Of a DNA stretch of 34,674 nt, positions 29,878 to 34,674 are shown one piece after another (position 1 is the stretch's first letter; each line of letters starts with the position of its first letter). Source of the DNA: Escherichia phage PhiKM; the sequence record PQ738613; one strand, given 5' to 3'. A program made the translations under genes and the position numbers. Under the pieces are notes generated by a model. That model was not told where the DNA came from and searched no databases. It saw only the letters and a program-made list of their open reading frames with translations.

Positions 29878-29908
29878 CCGGAAAGCATTGTGCTTTCCGG
29901 TTTTGTTT
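29878..29908 (+). terminator. rho-independent terminator between convergent repressor and methyltransferase genes
   Basis: CCGGAAAGCA (29878-29887) ttg TGCTTTCCGG (29891-29900) followed by TTTTGTTT. Confidence 0.55.
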
Positions 29909-30672
29909 CAGAAGTTGCAGATTAGCAGTTCACGGCGCGGCGTGGGTTTACCCGCCAGACTGTAGTTGATATTCACTGTCTGTATGTTCAGTCCAGTGAA
30001 CACCTCGCGCATCTGCGGGATGTCGTTCACCGAAATTATCATTTTTCCTCTGATGCACCGGGCCAGCTCTGCCAGCCGCGAGTAGTTCCCTTCAGGAAAA
30101 TCCACACCATAGCCTTCCGTACCCAGGTACGGTGGGTCGCAGTAGAACAGCGTGTGCGGACGATCATAACGCTCAATGCACTGTTGCCAGTCCATGTGTT
30201 CTATGACTGTTCTGGAAAGCCGCAGGTGTGCCGCTGACAGTTCTTCTTCAATACGTAGCAGGTTGAAGCGTGGCGGGGATGTGGTGGAGGTACCGAAGCT
30301 GTGCTCTGCCACCTTGCCGCCAAACGCCTGCTTCTGAAGGTAGTAGAACCGTGCCGCACGCTGGATATCCGTCAGTGTTTCTTCCGGGGTGATCTGCAGC
30401 CATTTGTAGATCTGACGGCTGACCAGCGCCCATTTGAACTGGCGGACAAATTCTTCCAGGTGATGCTTTACCACCCGGTACAGATTCACCAGTTCACCGT
30501 TGATATCATTGATGACTTCGATCTTGCCGGGTGTCTTAAGAAAATAGAGCGCTGCTGCCCCACAAAACGGCTCCACATAACATTCATGCGCCGGAAACAG
30601 CGGCAGAATGTGTTTTGCAAGGCGGCGTTTGCCACCAATCCACGGCACGATGGGTAATGTCTGCATTTTCAT
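29908..30672 (-). CDS. DNA adenine methyltransferase (Dam / D12-class N6-adenine MTase family)
   Basis: DPPY motif (FYCDPPYLGTEGYG), N-terminal PIVPWIGGKRRL and EPFCGAAALYF motifs; start at 30672 (MKMQTLP) preferred; track ORF extends to 30762 through palindromic non-coding-looking DNA. Confidence 0.85.
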   Translation of the reverse strand: MKMQTLPIVPWIGGKRRLAKHILPLFPAHECYVEPFCGAAALYFLKTPGKIEVINDINGELVNLYRVVKHHLEEFVRQFKWALVSRQIYKWLQITPEETLTDIQRAARFYYLQKQAFGGKVAEHSFGTSTTSPPRFNLLRIEEELSAAHLRLSRTVIEHMDWQQCIERYDRPHTLFYCDPPYLGTEGYGVDFPEGNYSRLAELARCIRGKMIISVNDIPQMREVFTGLNIQTVNINYSLAGKPTPRRELLICNF

Positions 30673-30720
30673 AATCTGCAAGCCTTTTACAATTATTAAA
30701 AAATATGGCAGTCTGGTCAG

Positions 30721-30732
30721 GTCTCGCGAGAC
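30721..30732. promoter_or_regulatory. 12-bp perfect palindrome GTCTCGCGAGAC about 50 bp upstream of methyltransferase start
   Basis: Directly read. Confidence 0.35.
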
Positions 30733-30776
30733 TGACTGAACCTTGGTCGGCTCACAGCGCATTCCTGTGGGGCGAT

Positions 30777-30862: not shown

Positions 30863-31078
30863 TTATCCGGGGCGATTTTCTGACCTTATCCGGTCCAGGG
30901 CATAAGTAATACCTTCTGCAAAAACAGAAGTATCAAACTGCTTTTGTATTCCCTGAAAATGAAAAGCGGCACGACAGACACTCAGTTCTCCGCGGTATAA
31001 CCGGATAATATCTTCCAGAACATTGTTCACTGCTTCAGCACGGCGCTGATGTTCTGTTAACGTTAATCGGGGATTCAT
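30863..31078 (-). CDS. hypothetical 71-aa protein
   Basis: Strong SD AAGGAG 6 nt upstream of ATG 31078; alpha-helical-looking product; no recognisable family. Confidence 0.5.
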   Translation of the reverse strand: MNPRLTLTEHQRRAEAVNNVLEDIIRLYRGELSVCRAAFHFQGIQKQFDTSVFAEGITYALDRIRSENRPG

Positions 31079-31079
31079 G

Positions 31080-31481
31080 ATGCACTCCTTAAATGATGAT
31101 TTTTATGTACTCACCGGCAAAATATTCTGCCGATTACTGAACACGCATCCGGCACCTCAGGTTTTGATTTATTCTGGTTTTTTCGATATCCCGGACCAGG
31201 TTGATCACGACCAGAAAAAGTGCCGGTGTTTTATTGATACGCTGATATGGCTTCGGGATAACAGCTATATTCGTTACTCTCAGTTGCTGGCTGTGGGAGC
31301 GGCTGATGTCGTCCTCACGGAAAAAACGCTCTGTCTGCTCAATGCCATGCCGACCTTTCTGCAGCCCCGGCCCGTACCATTTAAAGAGTCACTTCTGGAT
31401 GCAGTAAAAACCGGTGAAAATGCAGTCATCGCTGAATGCGTATCCCGGATTATGCGTTACGTGTTTAATGAACGTAAGTGA
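31080..31481 (+). CDS. hypothetical 133-aa protein (uncertain; fills gap between two minus-strand genes)
   Basis: ORF 31077..31481 with ATG 31080 preceded by GGGGA (6-nt spacer); overlaps the divergent start of the 71-aa gene and the 3-prime end of the NTPase gene. Confidence 0.3.
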   Translation: MHSLNDDFYVLTGKIFCRLLNTHPAPQVLIYSGFFDIPDQVDHDQKKCRCFIDTLIWLRDNSYIRYSQLLAVGAADVVLTEKTLCLLNAMPTFLQPRPVPFKESLLDAVKTGENAVIAECVSRIMRYVFNERK

Positions 31482-32185
31482 GGTTTATCCGCTGTCTGCA
31501 TAATCCCGATAGCCAGTGCGAGGGGAAGTAATTCCGGGGAAACTCTTTCAAACAGCGATGCCCATTCTCCTCTCGCCATCACTCTGTCCAGCCCGCCCTC
31601 CAGTTGCATTTCAGCAATCTTCCTGATTTCCCGGAACAACGCCGCTTTGATCTCTTCATGCTCAGCTTTATTTTCCGGTGTCAGAAGGTATTCGTCGAAG
31701 AACCGGGGAGGCTGGTTAATCGGGATGTGTTCCTGTTTGCCGTACTTCGGGGACGAACAACATTCTGTTGACTGACCAGTGAGTTTACGTAACTCCTTCA
31801 TGAGCAGCTCCTGATCGTAAACTGTCATCAGTGCCGCAATGGTGGCATGCAGTGCATCGGGCAGTATCCAGGGTTGCCGGCCCGTGGGGCATATAACATC
31901 CAGCAGCTCATTCGTCCGACAGATACGCTCCTCGCCGTATGACAACAGGCCCTGTCCCGTGTATTCCTCCAGCCTGATCACTGTGCCAGCCCGTGGTTTC
32001 TGCCATGTGCTCAGATCATCCCCACTCATACGGCGCTCACCGTCCACGTCTGCGGCGTCGACAATGACGCTGTTTCCGAATTCCTGTTTCACCACTTCCT
32101 CTATTCGCGCCAGTACGTAACTTTTACCGCTGCCCACAGGACCGGACACGGTGACAGTGATGACCGGATTCAGTGTCTGCGTCAT
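31457..32185 (-). CDS. P-loop NTPase-domain protein of unknown function
   Basis: 242-aa ORF with SD GAGGAG 8 nt upstream; Walker A GPVGSGKS near N-terminus; C-terminal 140 aa without recognisable family. Confidence 0.6.
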   Translation of the reverse strand: MTQTLNPVITVTVSGPVGSGKSYVLARIEEVVKQEFGNSVIVDAADVDGERRMSGDDLSTWQKPRAGTVIRLEEYTGQGLLSYGEERICRTNELLDVICPTGRQPWILPDALHATIAALMTVYDQELLMKELRKLTGQSTECCSSPKYGKQEHIPINQPPRFFDEYLLTPENKAEHEEIKAALFREIRKIAEMQLEGGLDRVMARGEWASLFERVSPELLPLALAIGIMQTADKPHLRSLNT

Positions 32186-32315: not shown

Positions 32316-32666
32316 ATGAAAAACCTGAAAAAATTCATTCCCCCTGTTAAAAAACCTCGCCTCAGCGGCTGGCTGCTGACCTCAGTGCTGTTGCTGGGCA
32401 CCATCGCTCTGGTCTCACCACAGCAGCTGCCTGTTGTGATCTACAAGCTGGCACTCATCACGCTGGCAGCAGTGCTGGGTTACTGGCTTGACCGTTCGCT
32501 CTTCCCCAAAGCCCGTCCCGGTCAGTACCTGAAACATGACGACAGGCTGATGGCTGAAGGGCGTTTCCCGGTACAGACCGGCCTTCACCTGGTGTTTTCT
32601 GCTGCGTTAATCCGCCGTGCACTGATTGTTGCAGCGGTCTGCCTGGCTGTTGCGATGGGGCTTTAA
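32316..32666 (+). CDS. holin-like membrane protein (three predicted TM helices)
   Basis: ATG 32316 with strong SD AAGGAG (6-nt spacer); three hydrophobic segments; immediately upstream of endolysin gene. Confidence 0.45.
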   Translation: MKNLKKFIPPVKKPRLSGWLLTSVLLLGTIALVSPQQLPVVIYKLALITLAAVLGYWLDRSLFPKARPGQYLKHDDRLMAEGRFPVQTGLHLVFSAALIRRALIVAAVCLAVAMGL

Positions 32667-32668
32667 TC

Positions 32669-33409
32669 ATGAACTGGCCGCAGATCACCTGGATTGTATG
32701 CATGTCCCTGAAACTGGCTTTCGAAGCCTTTCGGGTCTTCATCAGAACCGAACGCCTGTCAGTCCGCGCCGGGACCTTTCTGGTTCATATGGCATGGGTA
32801 TTCTTTGTCGCAATGTTGCTCTGGTGTGGCGGCTTTTTCAGCCAGGCATGCGCAGCACAACCTCCGCAGGCTGCGCTGCAGTATCGCGATGATGTGATCC
32901 GTAATGCCCGGCTTGAATGGGGACTGTCTGCGCCGGTGGCCGATTTCGCCGCGCAACTGCATCAGGAAAGCGGCTGGCGACCTGATGCGATCTCGCCGGC
33001 TGGCGCTCAGGGACTGGCGCAGTTCATGCCTGCCACTGCCGACTGGATAAGCCAGTTGATACCGATGCTGAGCAGTCGTGAGCCGTTTAATCCGGCATGG
33101 GCTATCCGGGCGCTGGTCAGCTATGACCGCTGGCTGTGGCAGCGTGTCAGCGCCGCCAGTGACTGCGAGCGTATGGCCATGACACTGTCGGGCTATAACG
33201 GTGGTCTGGGCTGGGTACAACGGGACAGGCGGCTTGCATCACAGAAAGGTCTGGACAGCACCCGCTGGTTCGGACATGTCGCCACGGTGAATGCCGGACG
33301 CAATGCGGCCAGCTGGCGGGAGAACCGCCATTATCCGCAGCGCATCCTGCGCGAACTGGCACCGCGATATCTCACATGGGGAGGCAGCAGTTGTGTGGCA
33401 TCTGGTTAA
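32669..33409 (+). CDS. endolysin, soluble lytic transglycosylase (SLT) domain with N-terminal hydrophobic segment
   Basis: SLT catalytic motif region HQESGW...AGAQGLAQFMPAT; N-terminal stretch MAWVFFVAMLLWCGGFFSQACAAQ is hydrophobic (signal peptide or signal-anchor-release type). Confidence 0.8.
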   Translation: MNWPQITWIVCMSLKLAFEAFRVFIRTERLSVRAGTFLVHMAWVFFVAMLLWCGGFFSQACAAQPPQAALQYRDDVIRNARLEWGLSAPVADFAAQLHQESGWRPDAISPAGAQGLAQFMPATADWISQLIPMLSSREPFNPAWAIRALVSYDRWLWQRVSAASDCERMAMTLSGYNGGLGWVQRDRRLASQKGLDSTRWFGHVATVNAGRNAASWRENRHYPQRILRELAPRYLTWGGSSCVASG

Positions 33410-34043
33410 AAAGCTGCCGTGGCGCGGCATTCTGCTGGCCATTCTTATCAATGCCTTTCTGGTCGGCCTGTATGCCATGGGATACAGAAGTGGTCATGAC
33501 TCTGCAAAGCGTGACGGTGATACCGCGCTAAGTCAGTTGCAGTCAGCATTTGACGCGTACAAAACGGAGCAGGCAACGCTTGAGAATGCTGCGCTGCGGG
33601 CCTGGGCCAGACGGTATCAGGAGCAGGTGGCCGCCGGGCAGCGGGCTGAAGCCGGTTATCTTGAGCAGATTGCTCAACTGGAGAGCCGGAACAAACAACT
33701 ACAGGGGCAAATTAACGATGTCACACAGCGCTGGATTGATGAAAAAGGTAAGAGTCATCCCATTGAGTGCGTGTTTACTCGCGGTTTCGTGCGCCAGTAC
33801 AACGCCGCACTCGGATATGACAACGCATCCGTCGACACCGGTCATTCAGACTCAGTTGCCGCCACTGGCACCCGCTCTGGCACAGCGACCGGGCAACCTG
33901 AAACCACTGACACCCGGTTACGCGATTCGGGTGTCTCCCAGCGTGACGTTCTCGCCAACATCATCGACAACGCATGGCAATGTCGTCGCTGGCGGAACCA
34001 GATAAACGCGCTGCTGGATGAACGGGAAGGATTACAGAAATGA
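33393..34043 (+). CDS. i-spanin (Rz-like)
   Basis: GTG 33393 with SD GGGGAGG 8 nt upstream, overlapping endolysin 3-prime end; N-terminal TM helix then coiled-coil periplasmic domain. Confidence 0.6.
   Translation: MWHLVKKLPWRGILLAILINAFLVGLYAMGYRSGHDSAKRDGDTALSQLQSAFDAYKTEQATLENAALRAWARRYQEQVAAGQRAEAGYLEQIAQLESRNKQLQGQINDVTQRWIDEKGKSHPIECVFTRGFVRQYNAALGYDNASVDTGHSDSVAATGTRSGTATGQPETTDTRLRDSGVSQRDVLANIIDNAWQCRRWRNQINALLDEREGLQK
33739..34005 (+). CDS. o-spanin (Rz1-like lipoprotein) embedded in +1 frame within Rz
   Basis: ATG 33739; product MKKVRVIPLSACLLAVSC... has a signal peptide with a Cys at a lipobox-like position and a Pro-rich mature region (LPPLAPALAQRPGNLKPLTPGY). Confidence 0.5.
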   Translation: MKKVRVIPLSACLLAVSCASTTPHSDMTTHPSTPVIQTQLPPLAPALAQRPGNLKPLTPGYAIRVSPSVTFSPTSSTTHGNVVAGGTR

Positions 34044-34366
34044 CACTGCAGGTTGAATTCTGGACGGTGGTGAGTTTTCTGCTCACCTTCATGAGGTTTG
34101 TGGGAGGGCTCGCCAAATGGTTGTTCAGTAAAACAGAAGAACGCCAGGCGGCACGATTCGCCTCCCTTGAACAGGCCCTGCAACAATCCGCCTCCAACTG
34201 GGGCGAGCTGGAAAAAGAATTTATGCGATTTAAAGCGGATTTACCGCTGAATTATGTCCGTCGAGAGGATTATATCCGTGGCCAGACAGTCATTGAGGCC
34301 AAACTGGACGCGCTTTATAACAAACTGGAAGTGGTACAGCAGTACCGCAATACCGGAGGTCAATAA
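34040..34366 (+). CDS. small membrane protein (Mu gp25-position; candidate releasin/lysis accessory)
   Basis: 108-aa ORF, SD GGAAGGA, ATGA overlap with Rz stop; N-terminal TM helix followed by helical domain. Confidence 0.45.
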   Translation: MTLQVEFWTVVSFLLTFMRFVGGLAKWLFSKTEERQAARFASLEQALQQSASNWGELEKEFMRFKADLPLNYVRREDYIRGQTVIEAKLDALYNKLEVVQQYRNTGGQ

Positions 34367-34674
34367 TGGTCGATATTACCCGGGTACGCCGCGAATCCCT
34401 GCGCTGGAGTCTGCTGGTTGCCCTGAACAAGACCCGCCCTTACACCGCCAGCGAGACGCTGCTGCTGGATGTGTCCCGTGCCATCTACCCGGACACCACA
34501 CCGCTGGAACTGCGCCGCGAACTGGATTATCTGGCTGACCGTAAAATGGTTGAGCTGGAGAAAAAACCTTCTGGCGACTGGTTTGCTGACCTGACCCGCC
34601 TCGGCGTAGACCTGGTGGAATACACCGTGGAATGTGGTCCGGGTATTGCCCGCCCGGAAAAGTACTGGAGTGAA
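34367..34674 (+). CDS. hypothetical phage protein (Mu gp26 position), 3-prime partial at window end
   Basis: ATG 34367 with SD GGAGG, TAATG overlap; ORF runs off the window; would naturally precede the gp27-like gene at window start. Confidence 0.5.

Follow-up and report, generated by a model that had tools for sequence, protein, structure and literature searches.

A BcepMu-type lysis cassette in Escherichia phage PhiKM with a predicted secreted endolysin and a bitopic membrane protein in the gp25 slot

Five tightly packed open reading frames (ORFs) on the plus strand occupy positions 32316-34366 of the sequence of Escherichia phage PhiKM (record PQ738613; the whole stretch of 34,674 nucleotides (nt) that was analysed is called the window here). 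They encode a holin, an endolysin of the soluble lytic transglycosylase (SLT) type, the two spanin subunits Rz and Rz1, and a bitopic membrane protein of 108 amino acids (aa), and they are followed by a homologue of Mu gp26 (Table 1). Because its gene order equals that of BcepMu gp21-gp26, this region is an ordinary lysis cassette of a known type, that of BcepMu-like transposable prophages. BcepMu (AY539836; Bcepmuvirus) likewise has a Holin_2-3 protein, an SLT enzyme, an Rz with a +1-frame Rz1 and a bitopic protein, and then gp26 and TerS; its 2004 annotation lists them as holin, SLT, Rz, embedded Rz1 (gp24), "putative inner membrane protein" and conserved hypothetical protein (gp26). The two phages differ in host, Burkholderia as opposed to E. 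coli, and in the N-terminus of the endolysin, as described below. The five ORFs, their coordinates and the identities of the holin, the SLT endolysin and the embedded Rz/Rz1 pair had been proposed earlier from the sequence (hereafter the original prediction), and Pfam and PHROG family matches bear them out.

Table 1. Features of the lysis cassette and of the gene that follows it, in window coordinates (KD19, 19-residue Kyte-Doolittle window).
Feature	Position	Strand	Description
Holin	32316..32666	+	116 aa; Pfam PF13272 Holin_2-3, 1.1e-41; phrog_1528 holin, 5.5e-55
SLT-type lytic transglycosylase endolysin	32669..33409	+	246 aa; Pfam SLT, 1.8e-14 (residues 97-193); phrog_669, 8.8e-69
Leader segment H1	32684..32743	+	residues 6-25, ITWIVCMSLKLAFEAFRVFI; moderately hydrophobic, KD19 peak 1.43
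Leader segment H2	32777..32839	+	residues 37-57, FLVHMAWVFFVAMLLWCGGFF; strongly hydrophobic core, KD19 peak 1.92
Predicted signal peptidase I site	32846..32854	+	A60-C61-A62 (-3,-1 rule); 9-10 residues before conserved AALQYR
Rz i-spanin	33393..34043	+	216 aa; phrog_1403 Rz-like spanin, 4e-92; N-terminal transmembrane domain, residues 12-30
Rz1 o-spanin	33739..34005	+	88 aa; fully inside Rz, +1 frame, 346 nt offset
108-aa bitopic inner-membrane protein	34040..34366	+	phrog_462, 2.4e-35
Mu gp26 homologue	34366..34674	+	103 aa; phrog_436, 6.9e-42; Mu gp26 itself, 7.3e-43

The first gene belongs to the Holin_2-3 (PF13272) holins, as seen from a full-length profile match (positions 1-106 of 106), its hydrophobic segments and its place next to the endolysin. 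The protein has a basic N-terminus and three hydropathy peaks (residues 16-34, 40-58 and 92-110). The sequence GGAG lies 9 nt before its ATG, and a "putative holin" with identical coordinates is called by the Prokaryotic Genome Annotation Pipeline (PGAP). We know of no Holin_2-3 member for which hole formation has been shown. The holin stop lies 2 nt before the endolysin ATG, with no overlap at this junction; start and stop codons overlap at the junctions of the endolysin with Rz, of Rz with the 108-aa gene and of the latter with the gp26 gene, and on through to TerS. In the cassette region, signals for a sigma-70 promoter or a terminator did not rise above chance, and the region looks, from its sequence, like one activator-dependent late operon running into the terminase genes.

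The two spanin genes form a two-component embedded pair. Rz, a homologue of BcepMu gp23, starts with GTG (GGAGG lies 8 nt upstream) and continues from its N-terminal transmembrane domain (TMD) into a helical periplasmic domain. Rz1 begins with the signal MKKVRVIPLSACLLAVSC, in which Cys18 of the lipobox LAVSC is the predicted lipidation site; the +2 residue after this Cys is Ala, consistent with sorting to the outer membrane, and the mature part is rich in Pro, Ser and Thr (11 Pro in 71 residues). The proline-rich, +1-frame lipoprotein seen within Rz by the original prediction is thus present as described. A simple regular expression recovered the lipobox LL(A/V)(V/A)SC followed by (A/S)xTTP in 48 of 52 related loci. 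Rz1 spans 0.53-0.94 of the length of Rz, which matches the typical geometry of embedded spanins (PMC6139136). In four Lelliottia, Superficieibacter and Phytobacter prophage loci (L050, L058, L061 and L063), the phrog_462 gene comes right after the end of the SLT endolysin, with no Rz/Rz1 homologue between the two and no gp26 BLAST match downstream; either their spanin is encoded at another place, or it belongs to a different type, or they lack one.

The cassette is widespread. At the DNA level, it is 88% identical to that of Klebsiella phage KP12 and of Escherichia phage Phi06_2974 B, and it is found in 638 of 5426 complete E. coli genomes (~12%), mostly at >=99% identity. In these genomes PGAP calls the same ORF starts, leaves Rz1 unannotated and labels the i-spanin, the 108-aa protein and gp26 alike as "hypothetical protein". 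The holin, Rz, Rz1 and the 108-aa protein are all without an NCBIfam family.

The endolysin scores above the gathering threshold of the SLT family (PF01464) and carries the catalytic Glu in a QES motif (E100 of HQES, invariant in family alignment A5), as expected of a Family 1 lytic transglycosylase; its closest solved relative is the catalytic domain of Slt70 (1.7e-5 against the C-domain, Slt70 residues 463-560). This enzyme is preceded by an extended leader of 62-63 aa with two hydrophobic segments, H1 and H2. The start of the leader, MNWPQIT, is conserved out to Pseudomonas B3, where it reads MGIPQT. A basic loop, RTERLSVRAGT, follows H1 and separates it from H2; in KP12 and other Enterobacteria the counterpart of H1 is an uncharged TMD, ITLIILLAFGLGVTAI. 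H2 is rich in Phe, Trp and Leu, with a fraction of large hydrophobic residues (LIVFMW) of 0.71 and a Gly/Ala/Ser/Thr (GAST) fraction of 0.19, and directly after it comes S-Q-A-C-A-A with the predicted signal peptidase I site. The resulting n1-h1-n2-h2-c layout is reminiscent of the extended signal peptides of autotransporters. The original prediction had recognised a hydrophobic N-terminal segment in this protein, but placed it at residues 41-64 instead of 37-57, and had missed both H1 and the A60-C61-A62 motif.

A survey of 240 related loci for the leaders of this endolysin family gave 109 distinct N-terminal variants. Small residues occupy positions -3 and -1 at the junction to the catalytic domain in every one of the 109, and a strict AxA is found in 81 of them, as compared with 9.7% of control windows. 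The long two-segment leader is common to the window, KP12, Pandoraea prophages and Pseudomonas B3, and relatives from Photorhabdus, Pectobacterium, Lonsdalea and BcepMu have plain signal peptides of 20-25 aa, ending in ALA, VCA or AHA followed by D, or in VAA followed by Q. BcepMu gp22 itself differs from the window's enzyme in this respect, having a short, classic signal-peptide-like N-terminus of 20 aa (MRVLIAFVVALLGAAAPVAA followed by Q). Since the motif is kept despite an otherwise complete turnover of the leader, processing by signal peptidase I is the best explanation, and we therefore read the endolysin as secreted. Most likely, judging from sequence, it is exported by Sec, cleaved and free in the periplasm, rather than tethered or of the signal-anchor-release (SAR) type. 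By sequence, it does not fall among SAR endolysins, given the low GAST fraction of H2 and the small-x-small site kept in all variants; the GAST fraction of the proven SAR domain in Mu gp22 is 0.62, and those of the P1 Lyz and R21 SAR domains are presumably 0.55-0.65, as computed on what we take to be their sequences. The description of the enzyme as "membrane-anchored-type" in the original prediction is, on this evidence and that of the relatives with plain signal peptides, probably wrong.

Comparable enzymes are the lysin of Burkholderia phage KS10, a homologue with a SignalP-predicted cleaved leader of 44 aa, and Lys44 of Oenococcus phage fOg44; both share with the window's endolysin a predicted Sec signal, a signal peptidase site and a neighbouring holin (PMC2628397). 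Lys44 differs in that it serves a Gram-positive host and its processing has been shown experimentally, whereas that of the window's endolysin is predicted.

Several further observations concern the leader. It exists as two unrelated alleles over 32690-32812 (residues 8-48), between the conserved flanks MNWPQIT and LLWCGGFFSQAxAA: the E. coli allele of the window and the KP12/Mixta/Erwinia allele (...GLGVTAIKHGEPRNDKYSFWWQLAGN...). An origin of the E. coli allele as a frameshift of the KP12 allele was rejected because the other frames gave no match. A lipoprotein endolysin in the window was likewise rejected, because LLWC has Trp at -1. JBD25 gp0026 (L004:3398-4027) and B3 ORF25 (L003:1396-2190) have catalytic domains that are 96% identical and completely different leaders, that of JBD25 being short, with a lipobox (LLSAC) and then AFA, and that of B3 long and two-segmented. 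JBD25-type Pseudomonas SLT endolysins were classed as SAR endolysins by Chamblee et al. (PMC9239132); from its sequence, a lipoprotein or a cleaved form seems at least as likely for the JBD25-type enzyme.

The gene of the 108-aa protein overlaps both of its neighbours, its ATG the Rz stop (ATGA) and its stop the next ATG (TAATG). The protein has a six-residue N-terminal tail, acidic or neutral, and a TMD at about residues 7-25 by hydropathy. Because basic residues (K26, K31, R35 and R39) follow the TMD, an N-out/C-in topology is predicted. The AlphaFold2 (AF2) model, with a mean predicted local distance difference test score (pLDDT) of 93.8, shows a helix at 7-73, a kink and a second helix at 76-104. 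The cytoplasmic domain contains a near-invariant motif, LPxxYVRREDYxRGQxVIEAKLDA (residues 68-91; family alignments A1, A3 and A4). The protein is 51% identical to BcepMu gp25 and 41% to B3 ORF28, and its family comprises 1095 cluster representatives at 50% identity (E<=0.001).

The original prediction placed this protein in the position of Mu gp25, and by synteny this is right, because the next gene belongs to the Mu gp26 family. That gene's stop codon, TAA, is formed by bases 1-3 of the window, since the window is circularly permuted, and TerS occupies 3-548; translation of the gp26 homologue is coupled on its upstream side with the 108-aa gene and on its downstream side with TerS. Its family, phrog_436, also holds BcepMu gp26, B3 ORF29 and JBD25 gp0030. 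The 108-aa gene is thus the third after the endolysin and directly upstream of a phrog_436 gene, that is, in the gp25 slot. Mu gp25 is necessary for the SAR endolysin gp22 to be released and also helps other SAR endolysins (Chamblee et al. 2022, PMC9239132), and the original prediction suggested that the 108-aa protein might be a releasin of the same kind.

Homology between the two proteins was not detectable. Mu gp25 belongs to DUF2730 (PF10805; phrog_736). BLASTP gave no alignment of the 108-aa protein with Mu gp25 and an E value of 0.32 with the DUF2730 protein of JBD25. In hhalign comparisons of the phrog_462 family with DUF2730, three profile pairs of rising diversity reached probabilities of 1.6%, 10.4% and 13.5%, the last with 29 diverse DUF2730-type proteins; this best alignment matches the conserved "LP" and "G" landmarks, which we do not count as evidence. 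The Pfam DUF2730 model matched 0 of 44 and 4 of 122 members of the phrog_462 family, with a best E value of 0.025 amid coiled-coil noise, and a Pfam scan of the 108-aa protein itself returned nothing at E<=10. A Foldseek search of BFVD with the confident AF2 model gave one match (E=7), and a profile search of the PDB gave only ATP synthase b-like noise. Since the sequence and profile tests are negative, we do not assign the protein to DUF2730/phrog_736. At the level of prediction, the releasin reading thereby fails on its own terms, as the original prediction had made it depend on an uncleaved endolysin and on homology of the 108-aa protein to Mu gp25.

The architecture of the two proteins is nevertheless alike. 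Both are small (99 aa in Mu, 108 here), lie downstream of the spanins and upstream of a gp26 homologue, and have a single N-terminal TMD in N-out/C-in orientation with almost no periplasmic part; in the cytoplasm, their helical domain has one break, close to a conserved Pro. The Mu gp25 model, which is of low confidence, has helices at 10-49 and 56-97 joined by a loop, a two-helix cytoplasmic layout like that of the 108-aa protein. They differ in family (phrog_736 as opposed to phrog_462), in the YVRREDYxRGQxVIEAKLD motif, which DUF2730 lacks, and in the charge of the cytoplasmic domain, anionic in gp25 and near neutral here. The lysis systems around them differ as well: Mu combines a SAR muramidase with no holin, whereas the cassette here has a holin, and the leader of its SLT enzyme is predicted to be cleavable. 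Each of the two families pairs with many endolysin classes. Many types of endolysin, some bearing export signals and others not, occur together with DUF2730 proteins (PMC9239132), and beside phrog_462 genes we found SLT, soluble Phage_lysozyme, TMD-bearing Phage_lysozyme, GH108, GH19-like, Peptidase_M15_4 and Amidase_2 enzymes.

We surveyed the slot in IMG/VR loci that were retrieved through gp26 and not via the slot gene. The gp26 proteins split into two subtypes, A and B, the latter being the Mu/JBD25 type. A phrog_462 gene lies directly upstream of gp26 in 78/78 evaluable subtype-A loci, and a DUF2730-type gene, encoding a TMD plus a coiled coil, in 78/78 evaluable subtype-B loci (57 by a narrow hidden Markov model and 21 by inspection). 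The two families co-occur neither in 80 genome loci nor in the window. This perfect covariation of gp26 subtype and slot family (window 34366-34674; L001:4015-4305; L004:5169-5471) suggests either an interaction or inheritance as a unit.

Two Pseudomonas phages show the exchange most clearly. B3 (ORF24-29) resembles the window in its holin family, SLT family, long two-segment leader, Rz and phrog_462 protein; JBD25 (gp0024-0030) differs from the window in that a type II DUF2730 protein fills the slot and the endolysin leader is short and contains a lipobox, and both the B3-like phages and JBD25 differ in an extra small ORF between endolysin and Rz. B3 and JBD25 share the holin (93%), the endolysin catalytic domain (96%) and Rz (66%), with phrog_462 in the slot of the former and DUF2730 in that of the latter, and their nucleotide homology ends exactly at the end of Rz, a mosaic breakpoint. 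We conclude that the two families occupy the same slot with the same architecture and are interchangeable beside the same lysis genes; a role of the 108-aa protein in releasing a tethered endolysin in particular is not supported. The combination of a holin with a gp25-slot protein, which in the view of the original prediction may unite features of both strategies, is no special hybrid; it is the norm in BcepMu/B3-like phages, and JBD25 has the same holin family together with a true DUF2730 protein.

Based on these results, we propose a model for lysis to which, taken as a whole, we give somewhat better than even chances. The SLT endolysin would be exported by Sec through its extended n1-h1-n2-h2-c leader and cut by signal peptidase I after A62 or A63, so that a soluble lytic transglycosylase would already be in the periplasm before lysis. 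The Holin_2-3 protein, whose family assignment is firm, may then time lysis by permeabilising or depolarising the inner membrane, which would turn the pre-positioned enzyme lethal, as with other secreted endolysins. The embedded Rz/Rz1 spanin, clear from its gene architecture, would fuse or disrupt the outer membrane. The 108-aa protein forms a fixed two-gene pair with the gp26 homologue at the boundary of lysis and packaging and fills the slot of Mu gp25/DUF2730; it may assist lysis from the cytoplasmic side of the membrane, as an accessory factor analogous to the releasin. Its action is probably not restricted to tethered endolysins, nor is it demonstrably homologous to the releasin.

It should be noted that several points weigh against this model. 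At 21 residues, H2 is on the long side for a signal that is cleaved and could serve as a stable anchor, and cleavage is predicted from the conservation of the motif. The cytoplasmic domain of the 108-aa protein, with 13 basic and 12 acidic residues, is unlike the anionic domain of gp25. Members of the phrog_462 family also lie beside soluble endolysins (Phage_lysozyme, GH108, Amidase_2 and Peptidase_M15_4), and three phrog_462 loci have no endolysin within 3 kb. Because the B3/JBD25 breakpoint lies at the end of Rz, the slot gene is inherited with gp26/TerS and not with the lysis genes. Finally, our literature search turned up no experiments on the proteins BcepMu gp21-gp25 or on homologues of these.

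A serious rival, although a clearly less probable one, is that the lysis cassette ends at Rz/Rz1 and that the 108-aa protein and gp26 serve packaging, the head or late regulation, for example as a membrane-associated terminase or prohead factor. The B3/JBD25 breakpoint, which leaves the slot gene travelling with gp26/TerS, fits this reading no worse than it fits a role in lysis. The 108-aa gene is invariably adjacent and coupled to gp26, with TerS next; the gp26 subtype follows the slot family; six different endolysin classes, and sometimes none nearby, accompany the family; and the strong conservation of the cytoplasmic motif points to a specific partner that is itself conserved. Against such a role, Mu gp25 is experimentally required for lysis, and gp25 and gp22 alone suffice from plasmids (PMC9239132). 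A membrane anchor, moreover, has no known role in Mu-type packaging, and in most loci the slot gene comes directly after the spanins.

A tentative view, which we hold to be a little less likely again, is that phrog_462 and DUF2730 are versions of one ancient module of a bitopic membrane protein and gp26, with the 108-aa protein representing a second releasin-type family. The two families would have diverged beyond recognition, or one would have displaced the other, and the module would be present in essentially all Mu-like phages. If so, the 108-aa family may control from the cytoplasm how exported endolysins are activated, even where a holin is present, possibly together with gp26.

The mechanism of the original prediction, in which an uncleaved signal anchor tethers the endolysin, the 108-aa protein frees it as a gp25-type releasin and the holin adds a second layer of control, now appears unlikely. 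The length and hydrophobicity of H2 favour stable anchoring; the 108-aa protein shares slot, size and topology with gp25; phrog_462 replaces DUF2730 beside the same lysis genes in B3 and JBD25; and Mu gp25 releases unrelated SAR endolysins non-specifically (PMC9239132). Set against these are the small-x-small or AxA-type site in all leader variants, which argues for cleavage, the failure of the 108-aa protein to match DUF2730 by sequence, profile or fold, and the occurrence of its family beside soluble cytoplasmic endolysins, which need no release. In addition, the dependence of Mu gp22 on basic residues has no obvious counterpart here. Similarly improbable is a pinholin/SAR system, in which an uncleaved SAR leader would leave the membrane on depolarisation by a Holin_2-3 pinholin: a holin does adjoin an exported endolysin here, as in phage 21 and P1-type systems, related Pseudomonas SLT endolysins of the JBD25 type have been classed as SAR (PMC9239132) and some short-leader relatives are moderately rich in Ala and Gly (GAST 0.44 in the BcepMu segment), but H2 has 19% GAST and 71% large hydrophobics as against 55-65% GAST in proven SAR domains, the universally conserved AxA-type site is not needed for SAR function, and the JBD25 leader carries its lipobox plus AFA.

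The cassette itself is nothing new, having been annotated in BcepMu since 2004. What emerges from the comparison is that the releasin slot of transposable phages invariably holds a bitopic protein that is paired with gp26 and belongs to one of at least two mutually unrecognisable families. The as yet unnamed family is large and, being present in ~12% of complete E. coli genomes, offers a ready genetic system in the form of an inducible E. coli prophage. We suggest that the fixed pair of slot gene and gp26 is a modest, testable lead on whether the function of the releasin is general or the slot gene is one for packaging. The SLT endolysin family, for its part, looks signal-peptidase-processed and secreted in Gram-negative hosts; the label given to related enzymes until now is SAR. 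To our knowledge, secreted, signal-peptidase-processed endolysins of Gram-negative hosts are a class barely characterised by experiment.

Some minor observations concern the slot and its surroundings. Gp26 has weak Pfam matches to winged-helix DNA-binding domains. In beta- and alphaproteobacterial prophages, the slot gene is often directly preceded by one for a DksA/TraR-type C4 zinc finger (phrog_54; for example, L074:3591-3827 and L076:1461-1709), and Mu gp24 (L001:3525-3719), in the same place, also has a CxxC...CxxC pattern, which suggests an older three-gene unit of zinc ribbon, bitopic protein and gp26. The last 30 and the first 30 bases of the window are contiguous in E. coli CP023844, which makes the window a circularly permuted form of the phage genome; the real ends of the phage are expected at the strand switch, at about 20.3-20.7 kb of the window. 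Directly upstream of the holin is a divergent gene (31457-32185, minus strand; 242 aa) with a weak P-loop match and a match to phrog_3787 (4.9e-170), and farther upstream are genes for a 134-aa phrog_2266 protein (31077-31481, plus strand) and a DNA adenine methylase (29908-30762, minus strand).

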